Origin: Anaerolineae bacterium
GTDB lineage: Bacteria > Chloroflexota > Anaerolineae > Epilineales > Epilineaceae
NCBI GenBank assembly: GCA_029262755.1
Contig: JAJCYU010000008.1
Span: 114-64,113, forward strand
DNA length: 64,000 nt
Direction of reading: 5' to 3'
The notes under the pieces were generated by a model. The model was not told the DNA's origin. It made no database searches and saw nothing but the letters and a program-made list of their open reading frames with translations. How positions within the stretch are numbered: the first letter of the stretch is position 1; every line of letters starts with the position of its first letter. Shown piece after piece: positions 1-57,724 of this stretch. Made by a program: the position numbers and the translations under genes.

Positions 1-2791
1 TGCCTGGGAAGAGGAGTCGGCCGACGACTACGACTTGAAGGTGCTCGACGAGGGCTACCGACTCCTGCGGCCGCGCGAGCACTCGGCGCAGGTGCCGGGC
101 GAGGAGCGCGAGTTCATCGAGCGCGCCTTCAAGGGCAATAGCGAATTGGTCAACACCGTCGTGGCCACGCCGACCCTGGAGATGGGCGTCGATATCGGAG
201 CCCTGGACGCGGTCCTGATGCGCAACGTGCCCCCACTACCGGCGAACTACTGGCAGCGCGCCGGTCGCGCCGGACGCCGCCACCGCATGGCCGTCGTCTT
301 GACCTACGCGCGCGGTGCCAGCCACGACCGCGCCTACTTTGAAGAACCGCTCAAGCTCCTGGGTGGCTCCATCGATCCGCCATCCTTCAATCTGCGCAAC
401 GACGTCATGGTGCGGCATCACGTCCACAGCACGGTATTGAGTTGGCTACATCGCAGGGTGCGCAGTGGTGAGGACCTGACGGAGTTCGATCGCACCGAGG
501 TGGCCGAAGCTCTTGGAAAGGCCTTCCCGCCGCGTGTCAGCGAATACCTGTTCAACGACCGGGGAGAGGTGCGCGCCAAGCCGCGCGAGATGAGCCTGCT
601 GCGTCTCGTGATTAGCAAGCACCAGGGGCTTATCTTCGAGCACGTGGAGTCGGTCTTTGGTCAGGGATGGCCCGAGTTGGATAAGAAGGTCGTCGAAGGT
701 GAGCGTCTCAAGCAGTACGTCGATGAGATGGCCGACGAGCTCGAGGTCGTGGTGCATAGGCTCTTCCGCCGGTTGCAGTGGGCGTTGGGCCAACTCAACC
801 GCCTTGAGGATGTTCGCAAGCGCAAGGGCACGCTCGACAAAGAAGACGAGGCGCTGCGCCGGCGTTGCGACAGGCTCGTGCGCCGGCTCAAGGGGCAAAG
901 CTTCGGCGACAAGGGCTCAGCCGAGGGAGTCGATGGTACATGGACGTACGGCGTGCTGTCCGCAGAAGGATTTCTGCCCGGCTATGGCCTAGATACGGGC
1001 TCGATTGTGGCCTATCACCAGCCGGCCTTCGGCTCCGGTCGGCGCGATTGGGAGTTACGTCGTTCCCAGGCCCTGGCGCTGCGCGAGTACGTGCCCGGTA
1101 ACTTGATCTACGCGGCGGGGCAGAAGTACCTCGCACGTAGGTATCACCTTGCGCTGGAAGGCGAGGATGGCAAGGGCCCGGCTCACTACCTGGTCGACCC
1201 CGCGGCCGAAGCGGTGCGCGAGCTGGACGGCTCGTCGAACGGAATGTCCGCAGGGCTCGGAGGCCAGACGATTACCGCCATCCCTATCAGCGATGTCGAT
1301 GTGCCGCACCACTCGTCCATCAGCGACGACGAGACCTATCGCTTCCAGATGCCGGTCTCGATCTTCGGCTACGAGCAGCCGCAGCACGAAGGCGGCACGG
1401 CTCTGTCCTGGAGCAAGAAGCAGCTCCATCACCGGCGCGGCGTGCGGCTGCGGCTGGTCAACGTCGGAGCCGCCACCCTGGTGCGGTCCAAGGGCGAGCT
1501 TGGCTACCCGGTGTGCATGGCCTGCGGCGCGAGCCGCTCGCCCATGGCTAGCCAGGTCGAGCGGGACAAGTTCGCCGAGACCCATCGCTCCAACTGCGGG
1601 CAGCCCGCGGAGCGCATCGGCTTCTACGCTGATGTCGTGGCCGACGCGCTGTCGTTGGTCGACTGCACCGACCGGACCGAGGCCTATAGCGTGATGGAGG
1701 CGCTGCGCCGCGGCGCGGCCGATATCCTGGAGATGGAAATCGAGGACCTTCAGCTGCTGGCCGTCGGCAAGCCAGGCGAGGAGGCGCTCGACATCCTGCT
1801 CTACGACCCCATGCCCGGCGGCTCGGGACTGCTCGACCAGATGGTCGATCGTTGGGCGGAGGTCGTCGCAGCGGCCAATCTCGTGCTCGATTGTCCCGCG
1901 CAATGCGGCGCGGCCTGCGTGGATTGCCTGCAGCGCTTCCGCAACGCGCACATCCATCGCTACCTTGACCGCCATGCAGCACTGGAGCGGCTCGCCGCTT
2001 GGGGCGCGAAGCTCCAGATGAAGCACGCGATCCCGGCCAAGCTGCCGCAGGCGGCGGAGTCAGGCAGTCCTAAAGCGACCAACATGGCGGAGTCCCGGCT
2101 CGCGGCCATGTTCGAGAAAGCCGGATTCCATGGAGCGATTGCCCAGCACGAGATCGAGATCGGCACGAAGTACAAGCGAACGCTTCCCGACTTTTTCTTT
2201 GAAGATTCGGGTGGGCACACGCTCGGGATCTGCGTCTACCTCGATGGGCTGAGTTTGAAGCTGCATGGCAATCCCAAGACTCAGAAGGCCGATGCCTACA
2301 TTACCGATTGGTTGCTCAATGAGGGCTATGCGGTGCGGCGCATCGCTGCGACTGAGCTCGACGATGCCGGAACGATGGGCAATCACTTCTTCTGGCTGGG
2401 CCAGCGACTTGTGAGTGTCCGGCGCGCCAAGGAGCTTCGCGAGCGGCCCAATGATTGGTTCGTGGGACGCGAGGAGGCGAACAACGGGAGTGACGACCGT
2501 GAAGTGTCCAACTGGGATGAGACAATCGACGGTCTGATCGCAGAGCAGTGGCGCACTTTGGCGCGTGGATTGCGCGACGCCGGCCTTGCGGCACCGGACG
2601 ATGGCGCGGGCGACCTCGTAGCGGACGGGTTGGATGGGCGTATGGCAATCATGGTGTGGCAGACAGATCGCGGAGAAGTTGCACTCATCGAGGAGGGAAC
2701 GCCGACCGACGACCCCCGCCATGTGGCCGCCCGTCCCGAAAGCGATCCCGCAGCGGTGGCGCGGGCCGTTCGCGAGCGGATGGGAGGCTGA
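1..2791 (+). CDS. Giant SF2 (DEAD/DEAH-type) helicase, 5'-partial; only the C-terminal ~918 aa lie in the window. Carries helicase motifs V/VI, a DUF1998/MZB-like zinc-ribbon region, a DUF559 (Vsr/restriction-endonuclease-like) domain and a ~120-aa C-terminal tail
   Basis: The reading frame is open from nt 2, so the gene continues upstream. Motif VI QRAGRAGRR and motif V TPTLEMGVDIG are present. Cys clusters YPVCMACGAS and CPAQCGAACVDCLQRF sit ~100 aa apart, as in DUF1998 of MrfA/DrmA/DruE-type helicases. The C-terminal block KRTLPDFFFEDSGGHTLGICVYLDGLSLKLHG...GYAVRRIAATELDD resembles DUF559. Confidence 0.75.
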   Translation, partial: AWEEESADDYDLKVLDEGYRLLRPREHSAQVPGEEREFIERAFKGNSELVNTVVATPTLEMGVDIGALDAVLMRNVPPLPANYWQRAGRAGRRHRMAVVLTYARGASHDRAYFEEPLKLLGGSIDPPSFNLRNDVMVRHHVHSTVLSWLHRRVRSGEDLTEFDRTEVAEALGKAFPPRVSEYLFNDRGEVRAKPREMSLLRLVISKHQGLIFEHVESVFGQGWPELDKKVVEGERLKQYVDEMADELEVVVHRLFRRLQWALGQLNRLEDVRKRKGTLDKEDEALRRRCDRLVRRLKGQSFGDKGSAEGVDGTWTYGVLSAEGFLPGYGLDTGSIVAYHQPAFGSGRRDWELRRSQALALREYVPGNLIYAAGQKYLARRYHLALEGEDGKGPAHYLVDPAAEAVRELDGSSNGMSAGLGGQTITAIPISDVDVPHHSSISDDETYRFQMPVSIFGYEQPQHEGGTALSWSKKQLHHRRGVRLRLVNVGAATLVRSKGELGYPVCMACGASRSPMASQVERDKFAETHRSNCGQPAERIGFYADVVADALSLVDCTDRTEAYSVMEALRRGAADILEMEIEDLQLLAVGKPGEEALDILLYDPMPGGSGLLDQMVDRWAEVVAAANLVLDCPAQCGAACVDCLQRFRNAHIHRYLDRHAALERLAAWGAKLQMKHAIPAKLPQAAESGSPKATNMAESRLAAMFEKAGFHGAIAQHEIEIGTKYKRTLPDFFFEDSGGHTLGICVYLDGLSLKLHGNPKTQKADAYITDWLLNEGYAVRRIAATELDDAGTMGNHFFWLGQRLVSVRRAKELRERPNDWFVGREEANNGSDDREVSNWDETIDGLIAEQWRTLARGLRDAGLAAPDDGAGDLVADGLDGRMAIMVWQTDRGEVALIEEGTPTDDPRHVAARPESDPAAVARAVRERMGG

Positions 2792-2794
2792 CCA

Positions 2795-4858
2795 ATGCGC
2801 ATCGTGCTCGCCGACACGCTGGCCCAGAGTCTCGAAGCACTCGACAAGTCCGTGCGAGGGCTGGTCAAGCGGAAGGTCTTCGATTTCCAACTCGCGCCGG
2901 CCACATCCGGCAAGAGCTATCACCGCATCGATAAGGCACCGCAGCAAGGCTTCTGGTCCTTCCGCGTCAATCGCGACCTGCGATTGGTCGTCTTTCAGGA
3001 GGGCGACCTACGTGTCCTGTGCCACGTCGCCCACCATGACGACGCCTACGAATGGGCGATGCGTCACCGCTACGAGGAACACCCCAACACGACCGAGATC
3101 CAACTCGTGCGCATCGAGAAATCCGTGCGCGAGGTGATCGAGCGGCGGGTGAAGGTCATCGAAGAGTTGCCCCCCCTCTTCACGAAGCATACCGATGATT
3201 ATCTACTTGCCCTCGGCGTTCCGCCTGTCTGGTTGGACGCCATCAAGCTGGTGACGGAGGACACCCTTCTGGAAGCGCTCGACGAATTGCCCAGCGCCGT
3301 AGCCGAGCGTCTGATGCGGCTTTACGAAGGCAAGCCGGTGCCCCGCCCGGTGATCGCCGCGGGAGCGACGGGCTGGGATCACCCCGACACCGCACGCCAC
3401 TTCCGGGTACTGGGCTCCGAGCGCGAGTTGCAGCAGGCGCTGGAGTTCCCATGGCAGAAGTGGATCGTCTTCCTCCATCCCGAGCAGCGCAAAGTGGCCG
3501 AGCGCACCTTTTCCGGATCGGCTCTGGTGACGGGCGGCGCCGGCACGGGCAAGACGGTGGTCGCGCTGCACCGTGCACAACACCTTGCCGAGGCCAATCC
3601 GAACGCGCGCATCCTGCTGACGACGTTCTCGCGCACGCTGTCTGCAAGCCTCGAGCGCAACGCCCGGGTGCTGATGGGTGAGGACAGCCCGCTGTTGGAC
3701 CGCATTCACGTGGCCAACGTGCATCGCTACGCCGTGGAGGCCTACGAGGAAGCGCACGGCGCAGGACCGCATCTGATCAACGACCAGTCGCTCCAATCGC
3801 GGCTAGCCTCGATCTCGGGCCGGCTTGGATTCGACGAGTTCCCCCTCGACTTCATCGAGGCCGAATGGTGGAACGTCATCGATGCTTGGGGAATCCACGA
3901 TTGGTCGAGCTACCTGACTTTCGCCCGGGTTGGCCGCAAGCAGCGGCTGGGCGCCCGTCAACGGCAGCGGATGTGGCGTGTCTTCGAAGCGATGCTGGGC
4001 GAGTTGCGCGCTGACAACCGACAGACCTACAGTGCGCTTTGCGACACATTGCGCCGTGATGTTGAACATGGCCTAGTGCCCCGCTTCGATCACGTCGTCG
4101 TCGATGAAGCTCAGGACTTTGGACCGGCCGAGCTGCGCCTGCTACGGGCGCTCGTGCTGGAGGGGCCGGACGACCTCTTTCTGAGCGGTGACGCCGGGCA
4201 GCGCATCTTCCAGAGCCGCTTCCCGTGGCTGGCCGCCGATATCGACGTGCGCGGCCGATCGAGCACACTGCGTGTCAACTATCGGACCACCGAGCAAATC
4301 CGTCGCTTCGCAGACCGCATGCGCTTCGTCGTGCACGACGAGGCCGACCCGCTATCGCTTGACGAGGGCGCCGTGTCGCTCCTCGGTGGTCCTGAGCCGA
4401 CACTGATCGGCGCCGACGACAAGGCGGGGGAGATATTGACGCTGTCCACTTGGCTGGAAGAGTTGCTCCAAGACGGCTACCAGCCCGAAGACGTGGCCAT
4501 CTTTGCCCGCACCAAGAAGGTCCGCGACGAGCGGGGGCGCCCGGCCATTGAGCGCTCTGGCGCCCGTGTGCATGAGCTCAACGACGATCGCGAGCCGGAG
4601 GCAGGTTGTGTTTCGCTAGGCACGATGCACCGCGCCAAGGGCCTCGAGTTCAAGGCCGTGGCCGTCGCCGGCTGCGACCGGCGGATGCTGCCGCAGGCGT
4701 GGTTAGCCGAACGCATCGGTGACGCGGCCGAGCGCGAAGCCTTCATCGAGCGCGAACGACACGTCTTCTATGTGGCCTGCACCCGGGCACGCGAGCGGCT
4801 GCTGGTAACGTGGGTCGGGGAGGGGAGCGAGTTTCTGGAGGCAGTAGAACGGGATTGA
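2795..4858 (+). CDS. UvrD/PcrA-like SF1 helicase with an N-terminal RelE/ParE-toxin-like domain (~100 aa)
   Basis: Walker A VTGGAGTGKTVVALHRA, Walker B VVVDEAQDF, NYRTTEQI, GTMHRAKGLEFKAVAV and FYVACTRARERLLVT. The N-terminus VNRDLRLVVFQEGDLRVLCHVAHHDDAYEW follows the RelE/ParE sequence pattern. The ATG lies 4 nt after the upstream stop, with a GGAGG-like site inside the upstream gene's 3' end. Confidence 0.8.
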   Translation: MRIVLADTLAQSLEALDKSVRGLVKRKVFDFQLAPATSGKSYHRIDKAPQQGFWSFRVNRDLRLVVFQEGDLRVLCHVAHHDDAYEWAMRHRYEEHPNTTEIQLVRIEKSVREVIERRVKVIEELPPLFTKHTDDYLLALGVPPVWLDAIKLVTEDTLLEALDELPSAVAERLMRLYEGKPVPRPVIAAGATGWDHPDTARHFRVLGSERELQQALEFPWQKWIVFLHPEQRKVAERTFSGSALVTGGAGTGKTVVALHRAQHLAEANPNARILLTTFSRTLSASLERNARVLMGEDSPLLDRIHVANVHRYAVEAYEEAHGAGPHLINDQSLQSRLASISGRLGFDEFPLDFIEAEWWNVIDAWGIHDWSSYLTFARVGRKQRLGARQRQRMWRVFEAMLGELRADNRQTYSALCDTLRRDVEHGLVPRFDHVVVDEAQDFGPAELRLLRALVLEGPDDLFLSGDAGQRIFQSRFPWLAADIDVRGRSSTLRVNYRTTEQIRRFADRMRFVVHDEADPLSLDEGAVSLLGGPEPTLIGADDKAGEILTLSTWLEELLQDGYQPEDVAIFARTKKVRDERGRPAIERSGARVHELNDDREPEAGCVSLGTMHRAKGLEFKAVAVAGCDRRMLPQAWLAERIGDAAEREAFIERERHVFYVACTRARERLLVTWVGEGSEFLEAVERD

Positions 4859-4906
4859 CGCAGGGCAGAGAACGCTTTGTCGTTTTCGGAGTGGTGTTTG
4901 GACGAA

Positions 4907-6058
4907 CTACGAAGCGACCTGTAGAGCCTCCAACACAATGAAGCCGTCGATGGCAGCGCTCTCCGGAAGGGCACGCACCTGCTCGTCGAGCTCCATGGGT
5001 CGAACGTTGTGTTCGGCCATCAATTCGTACTGAAGTGCATATCCTTCAAGCACGCCGGCGCGCGCAGTTAGTCGGTTCATGAACGGGACGACCACGTCCA
5101 AGTCTCGCTGTCGTTGCTCGGCCGGCGAAGGCGCCGTGAACCGGTCCCGAATGCGTGACGCCGATAGGGCTGCGCGTGCCTTGTGGACATCCTCGAATTG
5201 GGGCTTGCGGATCGTTCGCTCGTCGTAGTAGGGGCCAAGCTCGCGCCGAAGGTCGTCCAACCGATCGCTCGCGTGATCTGAGTCCTCGTTCGCGAAACTG
5301 AGCCAAGCCGACAGGGTTGTTAGAGATACAGAGTCCACAAAATCGGCGTGCAGGAAGCGATGCGGTTCGTCGCCTAGCAGCAGATCGTTCGCAAAGCGCC
5401 TGGTATGGTCGCGCCACACCTCAATTCCGTCGGCGAGCTCGGAGGCCGCAAGGTTCATTGAGCCCATGTCGGCTTGACAACGGGCGAGGCCGAGTAGGGC
5501 GATGCAGAAGATCTGCTCGTTGGCGTCTGCCACGGTGATCTCCTCGGAATGCGCCAGCGCGTTGCGGTATTGGTGCGTCTTCACCGACAGATCGCGATAG
5601 GCATCCACCAAGACCTCTCGCTGGGCATCACCGTCCGCCATCTGAACCACCTTGGCCACTCGCTCCAGCGCGGCGTGCAGCTCCGCTCGCTCGCGGCGTT
5701 CGAGCAATTCGCGGATGGCTCTGACGTCGCGCGCGACAGATTCAAGGCGCTTCTCTAGCCGGTCCAACATCACGAACAGGGTCGAGAACCCTACGGCCGA
5801 GACGGCCAGGTTGAGTGCGGAGAAGGCCATCGTGGCCTGCATGCCTTGGAGGAGGAGAGGGGCGGATGCCGAAAGACGCGCCAACTCAGCTTGTTGTGGA
5901 ATCACCAGGTGGCGCACGATCTGACCGGCTCCCTCCTCTCCGGCCGCTCGGCGAACGACACCGCCGAGTACGGTGCACCGACGTGCATCTACGCAGGGAA
6001 GGACGTCGAGGGGCAGCGAACGCATGACGTTCATGCCGAGGATGCTCGAGTCGATCAT
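4907..6058 (-). CDS. Hypothetical protein with one predicted TM helix (AFSALNLAVSAVGFSTLFVML) followed by a coiled-coil-like region; start may instead be at 5842
   Basis: Long ORF, hydrophobic segment, no recognisable catalytic motifs. Sits on the same strand downstream of the two PD-(D/E)xK genes. Confidence 0.5.
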   Translation of the reverse strand: MIDSSILGMNVMRSLPLDVLPCVDARRCTVLGGVVRRAAGEEGAGQIVRHLVIPQQAELARLSASAPLLLQGMQATMAFSALNLAVSAVGFSTLFVMLDRLEKRLESVARDVRAIRELLERRERAELHAALERVAKVVQMADGDAQREVLVDAYRDLSVKTHQYRNALAHSEEITVADANEQIFCIALLGLARCQADMGSMNLAASELADGIEVWRDHTRRFANDLLLGDEPHRFLHADFVDSVSLTTLSAWLSFANEDSDHASDRLDDLRRELGPYYDERTIRKPQFEDVHKARAALSASRIRDRFTAPSPAEQRQRDLDVVVPFMNRLTARAGVLEGYALQYELMAEHNVRPMELDEQVRALPESAAIDGFIVLEALQVAS

Positions 6059-6227
6059 GGGAAGGCCCTCGATAGGTATGACGTTGAAGAATCGACGCGG
6101 TAGGCCCCACGGTGGGGCAGGGCTTGCAAGCGCTTATCCACGCACGTGAAAAACGTTGAAGTTCAACCACCCTAGCACAGCCCAATTGGCCTGCGCCACC
6201 AGTGTTCTGCTCGCTGATCCATCGGAC

Positions 6228-7067
6228 CTACACAGGGTGCACGTGCTCGATGACATGCACTGCCAGCGTGTTGCGTACCGGAACCAGTTCGTTGGGCAAG
6301 GCTCCTTCGAGCACAAGGGCCGTCTCGACCCCGGTGTCCCTTCCAAGAACCGCGAGCTCTGCCTTCAGCACCGCAGCGTACTTCACACACTGGAACAGTC
6401 CACGTAAGAGGTCAACGGTGGATGCATTGCGTGCCTTGACCTCAACGGCGAGCCAAGTGGCCGGTCCGCGGAAGAGCACGTCAATCTTGTCGGCCGACGG
6501 TAAGCCGTACTCGATCTCGCTGTCGACTCCGTGGGCAAGGCCAACGACCTTCGAGTGCGCCGCCACAAACTTTTTTAGCCGAAGGTGGAGTTCTCCCTCT
6601 CCGCCAGCACGATAGCCGCGTACACGCTCTAGAAGACTGGATGGGACGGCCGGCGGTGCATCCTCAAGATCGAAGTGCGAGAGCACTTGCGGCCAACGAG
6701 AGTAGGCGAAGATCTGGGACCAGAAAGCTAGAGCGAGCTTGCGTTTCGCTCGTAGGGAGCGCGATGCGTAGTCGGGCACGTTTAACGGGTATCCAACGAT
6801 TCCCTCACCTGGCACGCGAGTTTCCTTGCTGACGACAAGGAACTGTATCGGTGGGATCTCCGTTCCCCATCGATCACCTAGCGCGGTGAGATCCCATCCG
6901 ATGGCGCCGAGCACGTAGTTCAGATTGCGTGCGTTTGGCATTCTCAACTCTTCAGCCAAAGCGGAATATGTGATGGGCTGCTCGGCGTGGGCCTGACGCA
7001 CGAGGAGCGGAAGCGCACTACGGGCGCGCCGTTGGTAAAGTTCGTCTCCCTGCATAGTTTGAGCCAT
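6228..7067 (-). CDS. PD-(D/E)xK nuclease-fold protein (restriction-endonuclease-like), otherwise hypothetical
   Basis: C-terminal motif IDVLF...WLAVEVKARN...QCVKY gives D…EVK. Strong RBS GGGAGGAGG before the ATG at 7067 (MAQTMQGDELYQ). The ORF extends to a GTG at 7106. Confidence 0.6.
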   Translation of the reverse strand: MAQTMQGDELYQRRARSALPLLVRQAHAEQPITYSALAEELRMPNARNLNYVLGAIGWDLTALGDRWGTEIPPIQFLVVSKETRVPGEGIVGYPLNVPDYASRSLRAKRKLALAFWSQIFAYSRWPQVLSHFDLEDAPPAVPSSLLERVRGYRAGGEGELHLRLKKFVAAHSKVVGLAHGVDSEIEYGLPSADKIDVLFRGPATWLAVEVKARNASTVDLLRGLFQCVKYAAVLKAELAVLGRDTGVETALVLEGALPNELVPVRNTLAVHVIEHVHPV

Positions 7068-7112
7068 GCGCCTCCTCCCGTGGACATGATGTAGTGAACC
7101 TGGCACGGCAGA

Positions 7113-8555
7113 TCAAACTCCCAGTGGAGCGACTCCCAGCCGCCGATCCCTCGCGTCGCGAATCTCGCACACAGTCTCATGCAGCACGTCGGCCTTCGGC
7201 AGGATCTCGTCGCCGTGCAGCCTCAGCGCCGGTTTCAGCTCATCGACGTACGTGGCGAACACGCGGCAGCCTTCCGGTGCGGCGATGATGAACGAGGCCG
7301 ATCCGACCTGCAAGGCGTAGGAACGGCCTTGCATCGCAGCGTCCTTCCAGTCCTCGCGGCGCACGAGGGAGTGCTTGGCCTCCACGATGGTCAGCAGCCG
7401 GCCTTCGCCGTCGCGAACCAGGTAGTCGATCCGGCCTAGGATGCGCTGCGAGCCGAGTCGGAACTCGCAGGCGTGTTCGCGAATCGAGCGCCCGCCCATT
7501 TTCTTGAGCACGCCTTCGAGGCAGTCCTTGCAGAAGGCGTCCTCGTCCGGATAGTCGCCCGCACGACGAATTCGGTCGAAAGCCGCGGCAGCCACTGAAG
7601 GGGTGGCCGTCTCCGATGGGCTTTCACCTTGCAGCAACTCATGAAGTCGTACGCGCATGCGCGGCGGGATCGACTCCGCTACCAAGCCGTTGAATCGTGA
7701 CTTGACGAGGCCCCATTGCGCGAGCACCTCGTCGGCCATCATCTCCGCGAAGGTCAAGTGACCTGAACTATCGACACGCCGAAGGTCCACGTTGCACGCA
7801 CGCCACCGCGCTAGCGGATCGATGCCGGGCAACCCATCCACCTCAAACACATCGGTGATCGCCCGAGTGTCTGCCATCCGGTACACGTAAACCTTTTCGC
7901 CCGGCGCCATCTCCATTCGCCCAGACCAGGTGACCGTCTCGTTCTCGAGCTCCGCGTAGTCACCCGGCTTGCAGGCAACTAGCCACGCCCGCTCGCCGTC
8001 GCCGCGCCGCACGTGCAGCGGGATCAGGTCGTCGTAGAGGAAGCGCCAGAGGCGAAACTGAAGCTCGAAGCGATCTCGCGGACGCTTGAGAAGAGTGCCG
8101 ACTGAGGTCCGGCGCGGCCACCACTCCTCCGCCAACTCAAAGAGTGCGTCACCGATTTTGCGCCATCGGTCGAGAGCGCGCTGTCCGCTGCCGAAGGCAT
8201 GAAACGAAAACGCGAGACGCGGTTCTGCGGCGCTAAGGAAGGCGAGTCCATCGAAGAGCTCGCGGTCGTAGTACGGCGCGCGCCACAGAAGGAAGTGGTC
8301 TGGATGGGCACGCGCCAACATCGCGGTGGACTCTACGAGCTTGCCGCGAAGTGTCTTGCTGCGGCGCACGCGACCGTAGGCCGTCGCGGGTGTGTCACGG
8401 TCCAGGTTGGCCAGGACGCGTGGCTTCCTCTTGTAGCCATATCGGATCTGGTCGACCAGTGCCCGCGGCTCGATTCGCCGGAAGCGCTCGTACGACGATA
8501 GATCCGCCTCGGCCGCTCGGGCGATGAGGCGTTCGAGCATGACGTTGGCGTTCAT
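7113..8555 (-). CDS. Hypothetical two-domain protein: central possible PUA-like (EVE/ASCH-type) barrel plus C-terminal PD-(D/E)xK nuclease domain
   Basis: GRIDYLVRDGEGRLLTIVEAKHS gives D…EAK. The central segment WLVACKPGDYAELENETVTWSGRMEMAPGEKVYVYR is EVE-like. RBS GGAAGGAG lies 8 nt before the ATG at 8555 (MNANVMLERL). Confidence 0.6.
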   Translation of the reverse strand: MNANVMLERLIARAAEADLSSYERFRRIEPRALVDQIRYGYKRKPRVLANLDRDTPATAYGRVRRSKTLRGKLVESTAMLARAHPDHFLLWRAPYYDRELFDGLAFLSAAEPRLAFSFHAFGSGQRALDRWRKIGDALFELAEEWWPRRTSVGTLLKRPRDRFELQFRLWRFLYDDLIPLHVRRGDGERAWLVACKPGDYAELENETVTWSGRMEMAPGEKVYVYRMADTRAITDVFEVDGLPGIDPLARWRACNVDLRRVDSSGHLTFAEMMADEVLAQWGLVKSRFNGLVAESIPPRMRVRLHELLQGESPSETATPSVAAAAFDRIRRAGDYPDEDAFCKDCLEGVLKKMGGRSIREHACEFRLGSQRILGRIDYLVRDGEGRLLTIVEAKHSLVRREDWKDAAMQGRSYALQVGSASFIIAAPEGCRVFATYVDELKPALRLHGDEILPKADVLHETVCEIRDARDRRLGVAPLGV

Positions 8556-9089
8556 GGTGAGCACTCCTTCCTATCATGCCGAAGTCAGTGCTGAAACGCG
8601 GGACCGTCCGCACGATACAGTGTGCCGTGCCCACCGTCATGTGGGTTCTCCAGCAGCGGATCAGCTGCGCGGTCAGCCGGCCAACTCGGAGCTTGCGTTG
8701 CGCTCAACTGACCGTCGGCCTCGCTCGGTCCAAATCGTCGCCCCAAAACGAAAAATCTTAGGGCCAAGGTGCCACGCCCAAGCGCCTTACGGTCTCGCCC
8801 AACGCCAAGGATTAATGCGGTGCGGGTTTCTTATTGTCGTTTGGCGAAAGCGGGTTGAACGGCGAGTGGAGGCTGTATGGGGGTAAACAATGGTGTTGGA
8901 ACGGACGGGCCGTCGCTTTCGGGGATGAAATCGCCGACTTCATTGATCCCAAGGAGGTGCTCCGTGGTCGGATAGAGGCGGTATGAGACGAGCGCCCTGA
9001 CTCCACAACTGTACGATGGTCCTTCGCTGAGATGCTGACTAGACACAAGCGAGGCTCGGCAACGCGCTCGTACGATCGTCCCCGAATCG

Positions 9090-9953
9090 TCACGGGCCGG
9101 GGAAGGCAATCAGTGCATCTCCGATGGGATAGGCATCGTCCGGACATGAATCGCCGTAGAATAACGGGTCGCCCCACTCGGTATCCGCTGTCCATTGGAA
9201 CGGACCCTTCAGGCGCGCTAGCCGGGAGCGTGGAACCGTGACAGTTAGAGTCTGGCCGTCGACGACGGGCCCTACCAGATCGAATGACTTCGAGGCAACA
9301 AAGTCGAATATGGCCGCGTACCAGTTTGCTCTGATCAACTCGGCGCTGATCGTGTAAAGGGTTCGATCTTCGTAAACAATGCTCGCGCCCCAAAAGTACG
9401 CGTCGAACTCAGACCCTAGCACGCTGGAGTCAGACGGGATTGGGCCTACGGCATCAAAGGCCACCTTGAGGGAGTTTCCGTCGGCTTCGAGGCGTACGGC
9501 TTGCAAATCGAGCCCAGGAATGGGGTCGGGCGGAGCGGTGCCATCCCCATCGCCCGTGTCGCCCACGCTGTCCGAGCAGACGGCTGAACCCTTGAACGTG
9601 AACTCTTGCGCCGGAGTGCGTTGCCTCTGCGTTGTGGAAGTTGGTGTTCGAGGTGTCTTTGTGGGCGCATCGGATTCCGCGTCCGAATTGCTCGAAGCCT
9701 CGGCGGCCGATTCGGATGGGGTAGCGGTGTGGGTGACCGACGCCCCCGATCCTTCGCTAGCCGCCTGCGGAGTTGACGTTGCTGCGCGGTCACCGTCGTT
9801 GTCCGAGGGAAGCGACTGCACTTCACCGCACGCTCCACAGACTGCGAAGGGAGCCAGGCCCGCCAGAACCAGCACCTTCCGCCAGCCGCGTCCGCGACTA
9901 CAGGCTGGAATGCCATTCTTGGGTGCCAAAGTGTCGCCCGTGCCACTTCTCAT
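9090..9953 (-). CDS. Secreted or lipoprotein-like hypothetical protein with a Ser/Thr/Pro/Asp-rich linker and a C-terminal globular domain
   Basis: Signal-peptide-like VLVLAGLAPFAVCGAC followed by a low-complexity ST-rich region. The start codon is uncertain. Confidence 0.5.
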   Translation of the reverse strand: MRSGTGDTLAPKNGIPACSRGRGWRKVLVLAGLAPFAVCGACGEVQSLPSDNDGDRAATSTPQAASEGSGASVTHTATPSESAAEASSNSDAESDAPTKTPRTPTSTTQRQRTPAQEFTFKGSAVCSDSVGDTGDGDGTAPPDPIPGLDLQAVRLEADGNSLKVAFDAVGPIPSDSSVLGSEFDAYFWGASIVYEDRTLYTISAELIRANWYAAIFDFVASKSFDLVGPVVDGQTLTVTVPRSRLARLKGPFQWTADTEWGDPLFYGDSCPDDAYPIGDALIAFPGP

Positions 9954-10159
9954 AAAGCCTTCTCCCCATAGCCTCTCGGTTGCCGCGATGAGTAATGATC
10001 CCCTCAATCGCAGCCCGCGCAAGGCTGTCGTAGAATCGGCGGTAGGGTCGGTAAGTGCACACCACCCTCCTGACCGAGCCGCATCTCGCTCGGTGTAGGA
10101 GCAGAGGCGAGATGCGACCGTCTAGAACGAATCCAGCCCGGCCCAGATAATGGAACAAG

Positions 10160-10785
10160 GTGTCCACTCGGCTGTACCACCTCACCCATGGCAGCAACCT
10201 GGCGGCGATCATCGCGCAGGGTGGATTGCGCTGCAAGCGGCAATTGCGGGAGGCCAACGTCGACCATCGAGACGTCGCGCGGCGCCCCCTGCAGGAGAGG
10301 AGATCCACCAGGCAGGTTCGTAAAGGGCCTGGCGGCACACTCCACGATTTCGTGCCTCTCTACTTCGCGCCGCGACCGCCCATGCTTTACGCGCTACTCG
10401 ATCCGAAGAGGCCAGATGGTCCTGTCGACGAACGCGCGATGAACTATCTGGTCACCGACACAGACATGGTCGAGCGTCACGAGCGACCCTTCGTCTTCAC
10501 CGATGGCCACGCGGTGATGGGGTTCACGCAGTTCCACAACAGTCTTGATGAACTGCCTCTGCTGGACTGGGAGGTCATTGAAAGCAGAGACTGGGCGGAC
10601 ACTAACGACGATCCGGACCGAAAGCGACGCAAGCAAGCCGAATTCCTCATTGCCGAGGAGGTTCCCTGGGCGATGATTCAGGAGATGGAGTCTTCGATGA
10701 GGTTGTCGAAGCCCGCGTTCGCGAGATCGTGCGCCAGGCCGGATCGGATCACGAGCCGACGGTACGCGTGCAACCCGGCTGGTAA
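10160..10785 (+). CDS. darT: DarT (DUF4433) ssDNA thymidine ADP-ribosyltransferase toxin with an apparent 1-nt frameshift near 10679–10689 (pseudogene or sequencing error)
   Basis: N-terminus VSTRLYHLTHGSNLAAIIAQGGL is the DUF4433 signature. Frame A runs through EFLIAEEVPWAMIQ. A second frame then reads GVFDEVVEARVREIVRQAGSDHEPTVRVQPGW*, which matches a DarT C-terminus. The span is 626 nt, one short of 3n. GTG start. Confidence 0.75.
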
Positions 10786-10808
10786 TATCATGTTGGAGGG
10801 AGGTCCCG

Positions 10809-11870
10809 ATGATCGAGCTTGGACGTGGCAACATTCTAGAGGTCGAAGCCGAGGCGCTCGTGAACACCGTCAACTGCGTCGGTGTTATGGGCAAGGGCAT
10901 CGCTCTGCAGTTCAAGCGGGCCTTTCCGCACAATTACGCTGCCTACCGGAAAGCGTGCGACGCAGGCGACGTCGCCCCTGGACGAATGCACGTCCATGCG
11001 ACGTCATCCTTGGTCGGGCCTCGGATCATCATCAACTTCCCGACGAAGCGCCACTGGCGCAATCCTTCTCAACTGGACGACGTCACGGAAGGGCTACGCG
11101 ACCTCGTCTGGATCGTGCGGGAGCACGGGATTCAGTCGATTGCGGTACCTCCGCTCGGATGCGGCAATGGCGGCCTTGATTGGGCGCAGGTGGAACCGCT
11201 CATCCGGAAGGCGTTCGAGCCGCTCGAAACAGTGCGCGTCATTCTCTATACGCCTGGTTACGCGCCCAGCGCGCGCGAGCGCCGACCGGCGCCCGGAGCG
11301 TGGAAGTGGACACCTGCCCGATCGCTGATGGTGCAGCTGATGGATGCTTACCGTCAGGGCGAGTACCGACTAAGCCTGCTTGAGATACAGAAACTCGCCT
11401 ACTTCATGCAGGAGGCGGGCGAGCCGATGAAGTTGAACTTCGTCAAGGCCGTGTACGGGCCGTACGCGGACAACGTGAGCCACCTGCTCCAGTCGATGGA
11501 AGGCCACGCGATCGATGGGGCAACAGACGAGCGGTCACCCGAAACGGAGATCGGGCTGCTCGAAGGCGCGGCCGAAGAGGCCCGCGACTATGCGATCGAT
11601 TCGTCTACGGTGGGCAGGCTCACTAGGGTGCTCAGCCTTATCGAAGGCTTCGAGACGCCGTATGGGATGGAGCTGCTCGCTTCGGTGCATTGGGTAGCGC
11701 GCGAGAGCGTGACCCACGAGAGGCCGTTGAATGACGATGCGCTTGTTCAGGCTATTCACGCCTGGAACGAGCGGAAGCGTCGATTGCTCAAGCCGGAGCA
11801 CATTCGCGTTGCGGCGAAGCATCTGCGCGCTCATGGTTGGATGGGCCAGTCATTGGCCGTGCCGGCCTAG
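10809..11870 (+). CDS. darG: DarG antitoxin (N-terminal macrodomain, ADP-ribosyl-DNA glycohydrolase)
   Basis: ILEVEAEALVNTVNCVGVMGKGIALQFKRAFP is a macrodomain signature. GGAGG RBS. Position is immediately after darT. Confidence 0.85.
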   Translation: MIELGRGNILEVEAEALVNTVNCVGVMGKGIALQFKRAFPHNYAAYRKACDAGDVAPGRMHVHATSSLVGPRIIINFPTKRHWRNPSQLDDVTEGLRDLVWIVREHGIQSIAVPPLGCGNGGLDWAQVEPLIRKAFEPLETVRVILYTPGYAPSARERRPAPGAWKWTPARSLMVQLMDAYRQGEYRLSLLEIQKLAYFMQEAGEPMKLNFVKAVYGPYADNVSHLLQSMEGHAIDGATDERSPETEIGLLEGAAEEARDYAIDSSTVGRLTRVLSLIEGFETPYGMELLASVHWVARESVTHERPLNDDALVQAIHAWNERKRRLLKPEHIRVAAKHLRAHGWMGQSLAVPA

Positions 11871-12054
11871 GAGTGGTCATCGGCCCTGCGCGCCCCCGCC
11901 GACAGATCAATCCGACACGCCTCCAGAACCTCCGCCAAGAACGACTCTTCCAATCCCACGGTTCTCGTCTAGAAGTCCATGAGCTCCTTCAGCGGGGTTG
12001 CCCGAAGACCAGCCGGTAGGCGACCAGGCTTTGATTGAGCCGCACGATAAAAAT

Positions 12055-12219
12055 CCCGTGCGTATACCGACGAAAGCGGGCACCTGTCAGCGAAAGACCC
12101 GTTCACCCATGTCCAATCCGGGCACTTTTAGCACCCTGTCAGGACCCAGCGTCGCTTCGCTCCGACAGCTGCCCGGTTTCCTCGGAATGGGTGCCCGCTT
12201 TCGTCGGAATGAGCACGGG
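12055..12219. mobile_element. 165-bp element bounded by 30-bp imperfect terminal inverted repeats (24/30 identical) with internal sub-repeats; MITE-like or structured RNA
   Basis: Left arm cccgtgcgtataccgacgaaagcgggcacc (12055–12084). Reverse complement of the right arm 12190–12219 is cccgtgctcattccgacgaaagcgggcacc. Internal repeats ctgtcag/ccgacag and tcggaatg. Confidence 0.5.
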
Positions 12220-12890
12220 TGCGCGATTGCCAGCTCCCCGGAGCCACCACCCCATGACCATCTACGACCGCATCGGCCACCACTACGCCACGCGCCGCCG
12301 CCAAGACCCCCTTCGTCGAAGGCGAAGCCGTACTCGCCGCGGAGGCCGTTGAGGATGGCGTTGCTGCCGGCCTCGCCGACGTGGTAGTGGTAACCGGGCA
12401 CAGCGTCGGAGTGGCCGCCGTTCGCGTCGAGGTCCGTCGGCGCTTGGCCGGCCTCGTCGTGGCTGGCGCAGAGGCCGTAGCCGTCGACGGCGTAGCCGAT
12501 GAGCGGTGCGTGATCTTCCTCGGTCGCCACCTCAACCGTGCAGCCGGTGTGGGCGCGGTAGTGGTAGCCGGCCACGGGGTTGACGTGACCGCCGCAGTCG
12601 TCGAAGGGTGCCAGGGTGTAGGCGCCGAGGATGGCGTCGACGGGGGCGGCCAGGTCCTGCGCGGCCTCTTGCGCTCCCGTTTGCTGCGCTCCGGCCTGTT
12701 ACACGCCGGTCTCTGGCGCGTCGGAATCCGGCGCCTCGCGGTCTTCTGGGGCCTGCTCGACGGCCTCCGGCGCGGCCATTCGCGCGGTCGGGGGAGGGTC
12801 GACCGGCCGGGCGCAACCGGCGAGCGGCACGAGCGCTGCGAGGACGTCCGCGGCCAAGGAGGCCGGGAGAGATGCGCGGGACGGGTGCAT
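12087..12890 (-). pseudogene. YHYH-family lipoprotein gene interrupted by an in-frame TAA (12699–12701); its 3' end runs into the inverted-repeat element
   Basis: Lipoprotein signal MHPSRASLPASLAADVLAALVPLAGC, then ...PETGV*QAGAQQ... in the same frame, then GYHYRAHTGC and GYHYHVGEAG (YHYH motifs). Confidence 0.55.
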
Positions 12891-13036
12891 GGGACGACTC
12901 TGAAGGGCGAAGCGACGCGCCCGGGTTGCACAACGGGGTGGAGGATACGGGTCGTCTGTTAGGCGGCGGCAAGGGGCGGCGCAAGGAGAAGGTTGGTTGA
13001 CTGCGATGGCGAGCGGTGGGGTCGCCAATCTCACGG

Positions 13037-15868
13037 TCAGGAGGTCTCGTCGCTCCCTCCGCCGCCGTCCCCGCCGCCCGTACCACCGCCCTCCTGCGCC
13101 ACCCGCCGCATGATGCGCCGTGCCACGCGCTCGATCCCGAGCGCAGCGCCCTCCGCGCGCGCCGCCGCGTGCGCCTGCGTGCGCAGCGGCTCGAGGACCC
13201 GGTCGTAGTCCTCCACGGCGAGGTCGAGGTGACCTTCGGCGGCACCGACGATCCACGCCGCCTCCTCGCCGCGGTCGAGGTCCAGGCACGTTATGGCGAG
13301 AGCGGCCAAGGCGAGGCAGATGTAATTCTCCGTCCCGAGGTTCTGTTCCGAGCGTAGCAGGTAGTCCAGGCTATTGAGGAGGATGGGCATGGCGTCTCGC
13401 GTTCGTCCGTCCAGGGCCAGGGAGGCGGCCCACTCGGTCTTCGACTTGGCGACCATGTCGCGGTTGCCCAACGCGGCGTAGCCTTCGATTGCGCTGCATG
13501 CATGCTCCGCGGCGGCGCCGGGTTCGCCGAGCCGGCGATAGCAGATGGCGACCATGCTGTGGGCGCCCGCCTCGTACTGCTGGTAGCGGATGCCGCGGAA
13601 GACGTCCAGCGCCTCCTGGAAGCCGGCGAGCGATTCCTCGAGCCGCCCTTGTTGCATGCGCAGATTGGCCAAGGTGGCTAGTGAGGTGCCGAGCGTCACC
13701 GAGTTGATGTCGCTGCGGTCTAGGCCGAGGACCTCCTCCAGCAGTTGCTCCGCCCTCGACGCAAGGCCGATGTTGGATGCCGTAAGGGCCGCTGTCTGCA
13801 GCGCCTGACCAAGGCCACGTGAGGTGCCTTCCTCGCGTACGAGAGCCAATCTGCGCAGGGCCGCCTCGTAGGCTGCTTCCCGCTTGTTTTGAAATTTCAG
13901 GAGCGAATGCTCGATATACGCCGCAAGCCGCCGTTCCTCGGGGCCGTCGGCACCGTGGGCCAGAACGTGCGCTTCTTCCAACAACGTCATCGCGGCCTGC
14001 GACTCACCACGGACATAGAGCTGGCGTCCCAGGGAACAAAGTGCCCGCGCTCGAAGAAGGCTCTGCTCGGCAGGCGTATCCCGTTCCAAGAGCACGTGCG
14101 CGAGCGCGAGCAGATCGGGCATCGCATAGCGCACCGTCCAGTAGGCGATGACGTTCGCGAAGACCTTCATGCCCGCGGTCACGTCGCCCTCGGTGCTTGC
14201 CCAGCGCAGCGCGGCGAGGAGGTTGTCGCGATCGCGATCGAGCCGATCCAGCGTATCCGACATCGCCTCTCCCCTCAGGCCGTCTCTCGCTGAATCGCAC
14301 AGCGCCGCGGCCCACGCGAGATGCCGCTCGCGCAGCCGGACCTCGGCGCCCGCTTCGGCCAGGCGCTGCGCGGCGAACGCGCGCACCGACTCCAGCAGGT
14401 CGTAGCGCGGGGGGGTGTCGTCGGTGTCCACAGTCACCAGCGATTTCTCGACGAGCTCGCTGAGCAGGTCCAGCACCGCCCAATCCTCGACCGCCTCGCC
14501 GGCGCAGACGGCCTCCGCCGCCTCCAGGTCGAAGCCGCCGGCGAAGACGCACAGTCGTTGCAGCAGCGCCTGCTCGGGCTCGTCGAGCAGGCGGTAGCTC
14601 CAGTCCAGCGTCTCGTGCAGGGCCTGGTGGCGGGGCAGTGCCGTGCGCCGGCCGGCGGTGAGCAGGCGGAAGCGCTGGTCGAGGCGGTCGAGGATCTGCC
14701 GGGGCGACATCGCCTTTACCCGCGCCGCCGCCAACTCGATGGCCAGCGGCAGACCGTCCAGGCGCCGGCAGAGCTCCACCACGTCGGCCGTGTTGCCGGC
14801 GTCGAGCGCGAAGTCGCGCCGAACAGCCTTCGCGCGGTCGAGAAAGAGTCGTACCGCGGCGTAGTCCGCGGCCGTTTCGGGTGTCGGGGGCGCTTCGTTC
14901 TCGGGCGGCGCGCTGAGGGCCGGCACGGCGTAGACGTGCTCGCCGTCAACGCGCAAGGCCTCGCGGCTGGTGGCCAGGACGCTCAGGCCGGGATGGGCCA
15001 TGGCGAGCGATTCGACGAGCGTCGCGCAGGAATCGATGACATGTTCGCAGTTGTCGAGCAGCAGCAGGAGCCGGCGCTCCTGCAGGAAGTCGTGCAGGGT
15101 GGCCTCCAGCGGCCGTCCCGGCTGCTCGCGCAGGCCGAGGCCCGCGGCCACCGATTCGACCACGCCCGCGCCGGGCTGGAGGGACGCAAGGTCAACCAGC
15201 CACGCGCCCTGCGGGAAGCTGCGCAAGGCCTGGAGCGCGGCGTGCAGCGCCAGCCGCGTCTTGCCCGTGCCGCCGGGGCCGGTGAGGGTGACGATGCCGT
15301 GGCGCCCGATGGCCTCCGTGACATGGGCCAACGAGCGCTGGCGCCCCACGAAGCTGCTGCGCCCGCGCGGAAGATTGTGCGGCGGGTCGGCGGAGCCGGC
15401 GGCGACGGGCGCGCCGGCCGGGGGCCCGGCGAGGTCGGCGTCGGAGCCGAACCCAGAGCGGGCGCGTTGGGCGGCGGCCTCGTCGCCCAGCGCGCGGTGC
15501 ACGCTCTCGGCCAGGCGGGGCAGGGCGGCGTCGAAGCCGAGGGCATGAGCGTCCACGTACTGGATGCGCCCGAGCTGGAAGTGCAGCTCGGTGGGCTGGA
15601 GCAGCACGGGCAGCACCGGCGTGCCGCGATCCAGGGCGTGCTGCCACTCGTCCTCGACGTTGGAGGAGGCCATGGCCGCCGGCGTCACGACGAGGATGAG
15701 GACGTCCGCCGAACGTAGCGCCTCTTGGATGGCCGTGCTCCAGCGCGCGCCGCCGTGGATGCCCTCACGGTCGATCCACGGCTCGATGCCGTGCGCGGGC
15801 AGGGCGGCGGCCAGGCGACGCGTAAACGGCTCGTCGCAGCGAGCGTAGCTGAGGAAGGCGCGGATCAT
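13037..15868 (-). CDS. TIR–NB-ARC–TPR STAND NTPase (bacterial TIR-domain STAND; candidate antiviral sensor with NADase effector)
   Basis: TIR domain FLSYARCDEP...WIDREGIHGGARW...ADVLILVVTPAAMASSNVEDEW contains the catalytic-Glu motif. P-loop GPGGTGKTRLAL, Walker B LLLLLDNCEH, LATSRE, then multiple TPR-like repeats. The ATG shares an ATGA overlap with the upstream ATPase stop. Confidence 0.85.
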   Translation of the reverse strand: MIRAFLSYARCDEPFTRRLAAALPAHGIEPWIDREGIHGGARWSTAIQEALRSADVLILVVTPAAMASSNVEDEWQHALDRGTPVLPVLLQPTELHFQLGRIQYVDAHALGFDAALPRLAESVHRALGDEAAAQRARSGFGSDADLAGPPAGAPVAAGSADPPHNLPRGRSSFVGRQRSLAHVTEAIGRHGIVTLTGPGGTGKTRLALHAALQALRSFPQGAWLVDLASLQPGAGVVESVAAGLGLREQPGRPLEATLHDFLQERRLLLLLDNCEHVIDSCATLVESLAMAHPGLSVLATSREALRVDGEHVYAVPALSAPPENEAPPTPETAADYAAVRLFLDRAKAVRRDFALDAGNTADVVELCRRLDGLPLAIELAAARVKAMSPRQILDRLDQRFRLLTAGRRTALPRHQALHETLDWSYRLLDEPEQALLQRLCVFAGGFDLEAAEAVCAGEAVEDWAVLDLLSELVEKSLVTVDTDDTPPRYDLLESVRAFAAQRLAEAGAEVRLRERHLAWAAALCDSARDGLRGEAMSDTLDRLDRDRDNLLAALRWASTEGDVTAGMKVFANVIAYWTVRYAMPDLLALAHVLLERDTPAEQSLLRARALCSLGRQLYVRGESQAAMTLLEEAHVLAHGADGPEERRLAAYIEHSLLKFQNKREAAYEAALRRLALVREEGTSRGLGQALQTAALTASNIGLASRAEQLLEEVLGLDRSDINSVTLGTSLATLANLRMQQGRLEESLAGFQEALDVFRGIRYQQYEAGAHSMVAICYRRLGEPGAAAEHACSAIEGYAALGNRDMVAKSKTEWAASLALDGRTRDAMPILLNSLDYLLRSEQNLGTENYICLALAALAITCLDLDRGEEAAWIVGAAEGHLDLAVEDYDRVLEPLRTQAHAAARAEGAALGIERVARRIMRRVAQEGGGTGGGDGGGGSDETS

Positions 15869-16431
15869 GGACGCCACCCCCACAACGCCCCCACGGGCAC
15901 GGCATGGATGTTCGCCGCGAAGGGCACGACCTCGCTGCCGCCGTAGATCACCAAGCCGCGGTGGAAGCGCTCGCCGGCCAGTTCGGCGAAGGCGCGGATG
16001 CCGCGCAGGTGACGATCGGAGAGGGAGGTGGAGGCCTTCACCTCGATGGCCACGCAGCGGCCCTGAGCGTCTTCCAGGATGAGGTCAACTTCCCGTCCTC
16101 GATGCGTGCGCAGGTGGTGGAGGTGGGCGCGCGTCGTCGACCAACCCAGCTGCTTGGCGATCTCCGTCGACACGAAGGTCTCGAGCAACGGGCCGATGGG
16201 CGTGGGCTCGGTGCGCAGACGCTCCGGGCTCAAGCCCAGGAGGTGGGCCGCAAGGCCGGAGTCGCTGATCACGGTCGCGTCGTCCAACGGGAGATAGCGT
16301 GCGGGGAGGGCCTCTTCCGCAAGGGCGCGGACGAGCGTGCTCTTGCCGACCTGCCGCGCGCCCGACAGGAAGACGACGGGCGTATCGGCAAGTGCGGCCA
16401 GCAAAGGTGGTGTTAGGGCGCGGGGCTTCAT
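15865..16431 (-). CDS. Short DUF4143-family ATP-binding protein: Walker A followed directly by the DUF4143/PD-(D/E)xK module, with the central AAA region missing
   Basis: FLSGARQVGKSTLVRAL, and VDLILEDAQGRCVAIEVKAS gives D…EVK. Only 188 aa, versus ~400 aa for typical COG1373 members. Confidence 0.7.
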   Translation of the reverse strand: MKPRALTPPLLAALADTPVVFLSGARQVGKSTLVRALAEEALPARYLPLDDATVISDSGLAAHLLGLSPERLRTEPTPIGPLLETFVSTEIAKQLGWSTTRAHLHHLRTHRGREVDLILEDAQGRCVAIEVKASTSLSDRHLRGIRAFAELAGERFHRGLVIYGGSEVVPFAANIHAVPVGALWGWRP

Positions 16432-16454
16432 GGGCGAGAGCGTAGTACGTGTGT

Positions 16455-16493
16455 GGTGGAATATCCACCACGCTATGGCGGATATTCCACCGT
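16455..16493. promoter_or_regulatory. Inverted pair of GGTGGAATATCC(A/G)CC motifs 25–60 bp upstream of the ATPase/TIR operon start; candidate operator
   Basis: gtggtggaatatccaccac ... atggcggatattccaccgtg; the second copy is the reverse complement of the first. Confidence 0.4.
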
Positions 16494-16525: not shown

Positions 16526-16692
16526 CTAGTAGTCCAACCAGCCTGAATCTACGGGTTCGGGAGCCACTGCATCCACGCCAGCGGCCCGCCGCTCGTCGGC
16601 AATAGCGATGCTATTCAGTCCTCTCTGCGAACCACCGGCGCGGCGCATTGGCTCCCTCACTACCCGCATCTCCAAGCTGGTTGGACTACTAG
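16526..16692. repeat. Perfect 17-bp inverted repeat pair (CTAGTAGTCCAACCAGC / GCTGGTTGGACTACTAG) flanking 133 bp; MITE-like element or long RNA stem
   Basis: Exact reverse-complement match at 16526–16542 and 16676–16692. Confidence 0.5.
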
Positions 16693-16850
16693 CCGGTTAC
16701 GCCGGCCTCGGCCAGCCGGGCGCGCGCGTACTGGCGCACGGTCTCCAGCAGCCGTTGGTGCGTCGCCTCGCCCATGGCCTCTTTCTACGACGGCGGCCCA
16801 GGGCGCGACCTGAGCCGCGTCCCAGCGGGCGGCGCCCGGCCGGCAGGCCC

Positions 16851-57467: not shown

Positions 57468-57724
57468 TCACGCGGATTCGTGCGAGTCGCGAGGTGCGTG
57501 GGAAGCGCGACAAGAGGGCGCGCGGGGGCGCGATCGTGCGCGCATGCCGCATTTTCCGAGGCGCACCAGGTAAACAGAACCCGGTGCTTTACCAAGTTCG
57601 GCGGCGTGTTTCCGCGATGAAGCGCTTGCTTGCGACCGTGCCGCTACCGCCAAGTAACCGGTCTGATACGTTCTGTTAACCTCGGAGACGGTATTTTCGC
57701 GCCGCCGCCTCTTATAATGCCTCT

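Follow-up and report, generated by a model that had tools for sequence, protein, structure and literature searches.

A 64-kb stretch of DNA (hereafter, the window) contains a 165-bp imperfect inverted repeat, which we call E1, in a decayed spacer. Two transcription units converge on this spacer, one comprising DarT/DarG (plus strand) and the other a TIR-STAND gene with a YHYH remnant (minus strand). E1 lies between the darG stop codon (11870) and the end of the minus-strand unit, folds into a long hairpin, and carries, on the minus strand, a run of five U residues next to the base of the stem. In our tentative reading, to which we assign a probability of about 0.4, E1 is a hairpin of unusual size that would serve as a terminator or insulator and may derive from a REP- or MITE-like repeat. 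The coordinates of E1, its parts, and the features discussed below are collected in Table 1. The repeat, its stability, the adjacent U tract, its convergent setting, and the lack of detectable copies are observations, whereas transcription through E1, termination there, and the origin of the element are inferred.

Table 1. Location of E1, its component repeats, and neighboring features in the window.
Feature	Position	Strand	Basis or remark
E1, whole element, 165 bp	12055..12219	no strand	outer inverted repeat plus 105-nt interior
E1 left arm, copy A, CCCGTGCGTATACCGACGAAAGCGGGCACC	12055..12084	+	inverted-repeat list, pair probabilities
E1 right arm, copy C, GGTGCCCGCTTTCGTCGGAATGAGCACGGG	12190..12219	+	reverse complement of copy A at 27/30
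E1 mismatch block, left half, GTATAC	12062..12067	no strand	faces GAATGA at 12207-12212
Inner copy B, tandem duplicate of right-arm core	12168..12189	+	repeat and mismatch search
Possible fourth, degenerate motif copy (..CCAATCCGGGCAC)	12108..12124	+	pairs with 12170-12179; weak
Small apical stem CUGUC/GACAG in E1 interior	12136..12168	no strand	repeat list, fold
A5 run on plus strand (U5 on minus strand)	12049..12053	-	one base 3′ of stem: ..GCACGGG-A-UUUUU-AUCG
darG, macro-domain antitoxin	10809..11870	+	converges on E1 from the left
YHYH remnant	12300..12700	-	aligns only with C-terminal ~115 residues of 320- to 350-aa YHYH proteins
E2, 167-nt palindromic element	16526-16692	minus-strand fold favored	31-nt arms, 105-nt spacing

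The original prediction had placed a 165-bp element with 30-nt arms at exactly the coordinates that we obtained. It had counted 24 matches among the 30 arm positions; the actual number of complementary positions is 27, so the repeat is stronger than had been claimed. The mismatches, said to form one 6-nt block, are indeed confined to that block, but only three of its six positions are mismatched: 12062/12212 (G·A), 12063/12211 (T·G), and 12066/12208 (A·A). By our calculation, such clustering of three mismatches in one block has a probability of ~4% by chance. The mismatches create a small internal loop that separates a perfect 7-bp outer helix (CCCGTGC/GCACGGG) from a perfect 18-bp inner core, CCGACGAAAGCGGGCACC, formed by positions 12067 to 12084 and 12190 to 12207. 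No other perfect inverted repeat of the window with halves at most 400 nt apart is as long as this core, and E1 heads the window-wide list of inverted repeats. In 60 dinucleotide-preserving shuffles, the longest perfect repeat had a median length of 13 nt and a maximum of 17 nt, compared to 18 nt in E1. The inverted repeat is thus far beyond chance.

The nested repeats that had been noticed inside the element are also present. CCTGTCAG occurs twice (at 12083 and 12135), CTGTC pairs with GACAG, and TCGGAATG occurs twice, with both copies forming the tail of a 20-nt tandem repeat. In this repeat, the right-arm core is duplicated in tandem: positions 12170 to 12189 and 12192 to 12211 are 90% identical over 20 nt, with a period of 22 nt. 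Inner copy B, too, is complementary to the left arm, at 84% of positions (12064-12088 with 12164-12188). When the 18-mer was searched allowing up to three mismatches, three occurrences were found in the window, all of them within E1. The fourth copy of the motif listed in Table 1 is weak and could be of chance origin.

The stability of E1 was estimated by folding a 186-nt stretch. The predicted energies were −85.8 kcal/mol for the plus-strand RNA (z = −5.95), −91.0 kcal/mol for the minus-strand RNA (z = −5.43), and −51.2 kcal/mol for the minus-strand single-stranded DNA (z = −5.69). For either RNA, no shuffled sequence folded equally well. The slightly better fold of the minus strand (−91.0 versus −85.8 kcal/mol) was counted in favor of the terminator. 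In folded transcript contexts of 380 to 800 nt, the helix between copies A and C had a pair probability of ~1.0. Pairing of copy A with copy B, considered as an alternative state of a switch, was rejected, since it is unpopulated at equilibrium folding. Only short, weak hairpins are predicted in the interior, and each strand contains five G·U pairs, with no strand bias. In Rfam, the only match to the E1 region at E ≤ 10 was the sR22 small nucleolar RNA (E = 5.6), and the whole 64-kb window gave no match at gathering thresholds. The earlier suggestion that E1 could be a structured RNA therefore stands in part: the stable, nonrandom fold and the U5 tract on the minus strand agree with it, and no Rfam family matches. 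Since the predicted structure is real and clearly nonrandom, a structured nucleic acid is a fair reading of the element.

To the left of E1 extends a lower-GC defense island, delimited as positions 1 to 12300 of the window, whose left end is beyond the contig; GC content is ~0.62 to the left of E1 and ~0.70 further right. Besides DarTG, the island encodes two helicases, one DruE-like and cut short at the start of the contig and the other of the UvrD/NERD type, as well as a protein whose N terminus resembles JukB; three further open reading frames (ORFs) have no family match. To the right of E1, on the minus strand, lie a TIR-STAND-TPR gene (13037-15883) and a gene for a DUF4143/AAA_14 adenosine triphosphatase (ATPase; 15865-16431). 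The latter is internally deleted and encodes 188 amino acids, with AAA_14 positions 2 to 42 fused directly to DUF4143 positions 81 to 160. Upstream of this ATPase remnant, there are two operator-like palindromes, GTGGTGGAATATCCACCAC (16453-16471) and GGCGGATATTCCACCG (16478-16493). An independent Logan assembly of SRR15505514 (contig L206) reproduces positions 11860 to 14285, E1 included, at 100% identity; therefore, neither E1 nor the junction is an artifact of a single assembler.

The toxin gene of the neighboring pair also appears to be damaged. The DarT gene (10160-10808) seems frameshifted near 10687: DarT homology reaches residue 176, and the last ~33 residues (GVFDEVV...VQPGW*) are encoded in another frame and end at 10788. 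The same frameshift sequence is present in an independent Logan contig (L085). Judging from the reading frames, DarT may be inactivated while DarG is intact. We considered whether E1 is a conserved accessory of DarTG and rejected this possibility, as the downstream regions of DarG homologs share nothing with E1. The nearest DarG homologs are 58% identical, and their downstream regions differ from each other. In one ENA contig that encodes a DarG homolog (L211), a 96-nt unit is present twice in tandem directly downstream of DarG (4168-4360) and is followed by IS4/IS5-type transposase genes; this unit is unrelated to E1.

E1 had been described as sitting inside the 3′ end of the YHYH ORF. Mechanically, an ORF does extend over 12087..12575 on the minus strand, but real YHYH homology ends at ~12300 to 12327. 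YHYH homologs terminate 6 to 26 residues past the last aligned position; the native stop codon has been lost here, so the ORF simply reads through E1. An insertion of E1 into the YHYH gene, as had been proposed, is therefore not borne out, since the homology stops ~80 nt to the right of the element. The read-through ORF is an annotation trap that makes E1 look as if it had been inserted into a gene. The YHYH region itself (12300-13000, minus strand) is degraded: it begins with a lipoprotein signal and a low-complexity linker, after which an in-frame stop precedes the remnant, and ~180 to 200 residues of the YHYH domain are missing. From these alignments, the YHYH remnant is a neighbor of E1 and not a part of it. 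The breakpoint in homology and GC content is located at ~12300, ~80 nt from E1. It adjoins the start of a short plus-strand ORF (12255-12311; GGAG followed by ATG; MTIYDRIGHHYATRRRQDP). Its product has a look of the N terminus of a SAM-dependent methyltransferase, as a 5′ fragment of such a gene would, but database searches gave no match confirming this identity, and it is treated here only as a short ORF beside the breakpoint.

The position of the U tract suggests how E1 might act. Transcription of the minus strand would yield the right-arm sequence first and the left-arm sequence ~110 to 160 nt later, whereupon the two arms would zip into a helix of 7 and 18 bp interrupted by the small internal loop. 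The U5 tract, beginning one base after the helix, would then promote polymerase release, as at an intrinsic terminator. Termination at E1 would keep minus-strand transcription from running antisense into darG and darT. On the plus strand, the same helix would form with no U tract and could at most cause polymerase pausing or protect 3′ ends. The repeated 20- to 22-nt modules suggest that the hairpin may have grown from, or around, a REP- or MITE-like palindromic repeat.

Several observations argue for the terminator. A5/T5 runs are found at only eight loci in the 64 kb, several of the others being at gene ends, and we estimate the chance that such a run abuts an arm in a terminator-consistent orientation as ~4 × 10⁻⁴. 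U-tract terminators appear to be used by this organism, since the window contains a textbook terminator hairpin followed by U6 at 57793-57853 (23-nt arms at 57793-57815 and 57824-57846) and small hairpin-plus-U sites downstream of minus-strand genes at ~6150 and ~8750. In addition, the E1 arms are identical over 25 of 30 nt despite decay of the neighboring genes (DarT, the YHYH remnant, and the DUF4143 ATPase); the near-identity of the arms amid this decay would be explained by constraint or by an origin that is recent and local.

Other observations count against it. E1 resembles intrinsic terminators in having a GC-rich helix, a U tract within one base on the minus strand, and a location between converging units; however, the loop of intrinsic terminators is 3 to 10 nt long, whereas E1 encloses a structured interior of 105 nt, which is atypical for a terminator hairpin. 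A scan with a consensus terminator model (loops of 3 to 8 nt) made no call between 11500 and 13200. Because the gene immediately upstream is a pseudogene, there may be little minus-strand transcription to terminate. No homolog of E1 was found, and its G·U pairs show no strand bias. A plain terminator would have no use for tandem copy B or for the possible fourth copy, which fit an origin from a repeat element or from binding sites better. If the terminator reading is true, E1 would be an intrinsic terminator with a very large loop that insulates a toxin-antitoxin pair against antisense transcripts, a minor variation on a known theme. E1 is best classed with the palindromic intergenic elements, a broad and known kind to which it adds a new orphan.

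The original prediction had found the location of E1 consistent with the insertion of a small nonautonomous mobile element and had named further copies and target-site duplications as the check. E1 could be a relic or a low-copy representative of such an element, a MITE or a REPIN/REP cluster, that inserted into the spacer where an acquired defense island ends and whose effect on transcription is incidental. We consider this somewhat unlikely. Among the MITE features, the inverted repeat alone speaks for this reading. A BLASTN search and a mismatch-tolerant pattern search of the 64-kb window for added copies revealed none beyond E1. The exact 18-mer of the arm had 84 matches in 185,579 species-representative genomes (GTDB), a collection that evidently does not include the source genome and whose scans needed exact seeds. 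Every match was single, and no second arm was found within 350 nt of any of them with up to five mismatches; the 84 matches are therefore attributed to chance. In JGI metagenomes, a two-arm pattern and a single-arm pattern with the variable block masked gave 0 and 0 matches. Blastn searches of plasmids and phages produced no match to E1, and viral contigs yielded chance matches only. Since spurious ORFs are commonly annotated over repeats when the DNA is GC rich, translations of E1 were also searched. The plus-frame translation (92 amino acids) had no candidate among 5.8 billion proteins, and the minus-frame E1 tail, searched within the YHYH query, retrieved only YHYH proteins, which covered 50 to 65% of the query. 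E1 is thus apparently single-copy in the searched collections.

A phmmer search of the E1 translation against 1.84 billion representatives returned two weak matches (E = 2 × 10⁻⁴ and 6 × 10⁻⁴), each made up of several stretches. Both proteins result from translating tandem arrays of a REP-like hairpin repeat (“WIPAFAGMT”), which at the DNA level reads ATTCCnGC-TTTC-GCnGGAAT-GACG. The right arm of E1 is identical to these repeats at 21 of 25 and 31 of 41 nt. The similarity is suggestive, but we judge it not significant database-wide. It was discounted because, by our estimate, a match of 31/41 is expected hundreds of times by chance, because HMMER scores are summed over tandem copies in the targets, and because the E1 modules do not have the self-pairing that defines those repeats.

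These results can be set against what is known of palindromic element families. Correia/NEMIS elements of Neisseria and ERIC elements are 100 to 170 bp long and intergenic, have terminal inverted repeats of ~25 to 30 nt, form a long RNA hairpin, and sometimes act as terminators or processing sites. Their families comprise tens to hundreds of copies, have a related insertion sequence, and show target-site duplications (TA in the case of Correia). E1 is like them in size, arms, intergenic location, and long hairpin; it differs in that a second copy was not detected, its flanks lack a duplication, and no transposase is encoded nearby. REP, REPIN, and BIME elements consist of RAYT-mobilized modules of ~20 to 25 nt, which are arranged in inverted pairs, form a larger hairpin, and are typically located at 3′ ends of genes. 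E1 shares with them inverted short modules that form a larger hairpin, and its right arm shows a weak similarity to ATTCCnGC-TTTC-GCnGGAAT, the abundant REP-like hairpin of L214 and L215. However, E1 exceeds typical REPINs in length, its individual modules are not palindromic, and no RAYT or other copies accompany it.

Mobility thus has arguments on both sides. Terminal inverted repeats of 30 nt bound a short noncoding element, as in a MITE, and 165 bp is a typical MITE size. The inverted modules A and C form a long hairpin, as in a REPIN, and the 20- to 22-nt modules follow each other in a + (+) − − arrangement, like repeated binding sites for a transposase or RAYT. E1 also sits at the shift in GC content from ~0.62 to ~0.70, in a patchwork of gene fragments; the only proteins that phmmer matched among 1.84 billion derive from REP-like hairpin repeats; and a second palindromic element of the same size, E2, is present 4.3 kb away. 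Since the window covers only 64 kb of the genome, a few tens of diverged copies could exist outside it. Against mobility, no copy of E1 was found elsewhere in the window (up to 3 of 18 mismatches) or in genomes, metagenomes, plasmids, and phages. Logan contig L206 is unbroken through E1, and since this contig is k-mer based, near-identical sibling copies in the sample (sharing at least 31 nt) are unlikely. The near-identity of the arms sits poorly with an old, decayed family, the REP-like similarity is not significant database-wide, and the modules do not self-fold as REPs do: CCGACGAAAGCGGG and its variants cannot form the 5- to 8-bp stem of the L214 and L215 units. The check for a target-site duplication was also negative, as no direct repeat abuts the element in its flanks (..GATAAAAAT/element/TGCGCGATTG..); the nearest similar flanking 7-mers, GCACGAT and GCGCGAT, do not touch the arms but lie at distances of 6 nt and 1 nt, and by our calculation they have a ~9% probability of arising by chance. 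A Pfam search of the 44 main ORFs in the 64-kb window identified no transposase, RAYT (Y1_Tnp), integrase, or reverse transcriptase. Nothing shows that E1 is mobile now.

Two further explanations were weighed. E1 may be a neutral rearrangement scar, a quasi-palindrome with a 22-nt tandem duplication and no function, left by template switching or fold-back repair when the defense island, a gene fragment, and the YHYH fragment were joined. We regard this as unlikely. The surrounding region, from 12 to 17 kb of the window, is full of broken genes and junctions, near-identical arms are expected of a recent duplication, the three mismatches in one block could come from a single multibase event, and E1 is single-copy wherever it was searched. 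However, the adjacent U5 tract would be improbable by chance, a 30-nt inverted duplication with halves 105 nt apart, a tandem duplication, and nested pairing would need several independent events, and the breakpoint in homology and GC content lies at ~12300 and not at E1. Alternatively, E1 could act as double-stranded DNA, as an array of three or four putative 18- to 22-bp sites for a regulator, recombinase, or transposase, e.g., an operator or one terminus of a larger mobile unit. The motif CCGAsGAAAsCGGGCAsC is clearly present three times in a defined geometry: two copies adjoin each other, their 22-bp period corresponding to about two turns of the helix, and the third is inverted. In addition, E1 is close to the island boundary. 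Yet the motif occurs nowhere else in the 64 kb, no gene for a recombinase or transposase and no obvious regulator gene is adjacent, the homology/GC junction is ~80 nt off, and the other island end is beyond the contig. We therefore consider a binding-site array very unlikely.

Two known kinds of structured elements were also compared to E1 and rejected. Like integron attC sites, E1 is an imperfect palindrome at a defense-gene boundary, in which structure stands above sequence. However, attC cores contain AAC...GTT (RYYYAAC/GTTRRRY), whereas E1 has GAC...GTC: TACCGAC and GTCGGAA match the cores at 4/7 and 5/7 positions, and the AAC and GTT triplets are absent. Moreover, no integron integrase was found, and the neighboring genes are not a cassette array in one orientation. 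Like a retron msr-msd region, E1 is ~165 nt long, has terminal inverted repeats resembling a1/a2, and lies in a defense island. This identity was rejected, since Pfam and PADLOC searches of the flanking ORFs gave no reverse transcriptase (RVT) or retron match, and the interior has no long msd stem-loop and no Rfam match.

The second palindromic element, E2, is the one other long palindrome of the window and has the same arm spacing as E1 (105 nt), whether by coincidence or not. No sequence similarity between the two elements was detected. E2 is, unlike E1, a nearly complete hairpin of ~66 bp, located 159 nt downstream of a minus-strand DUF429 gene. Its minus strand folds at −122.6 kcal/mol (z = −12.1) with nine G·U pairs, compared to −86.5 kcal/mol (z = −6.3) and one G·U pair for the plus strand. 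In these folding models, the strand asymmetry suggests selection on a single-stranded minus-strand form of E2, either RNA or DNA. The ends of E2, CTAGTA-GTCCAAC...GTTGGAC-TACTAG, resemble attC cores; an attC identity was rejected because the arms run 6 nt past the core-like motifs and there is no unpaired central spacer. The best Rfam match to E2 (V_AS5, E = 1.6) was unconvincing, plasmids contained no match, and viral contigs gave chance matches only. E2 is arguably more interesting than E1.

A broader proposal would unite the two. E1 and E2 could be undescribed boundary elements of ~165 nt, defined by structure, that bracket the TIR-STAND gene and the ATPase remnant and serve, as single-stranded RNA or DNA, as sites of recombination or processing; they would then be functionally analogous to attC sites, without an integron. 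We find this extremely improbable. As it stands, E1 matters little, being another orphan among palindromic spacer elements. Its importance would grow only if E1 and E2 represent a recurring, structure-defined kind of boundary element in defense islands; the present evidence comes from one locus in a poorly sampled lineage.

Two other parts of the window deserve mention. The end of a 28-codon ORF on the minus strand (16693-16779; MGEATHQRLLETVRQYARARLAEAGVTG*) falls within the CTAG of E2. Its product is similar to the “LLESVRAFAAQRLAEAG” segment of the neighboring TIR-STAND protein, and the ORF may be what is left of a further STAND gene that was cut at E2. A TATAAT-like box near 57712 lies ahead of the U6 terminator at 57793-57853, within a lower-GC intergenic region of 570 nt. 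The region from ~57700 to 57853 had no Rfam match and is the most structured of the window on the plus strand; judging from this arrangement, it could be a small RNA gene of ~130 nt.
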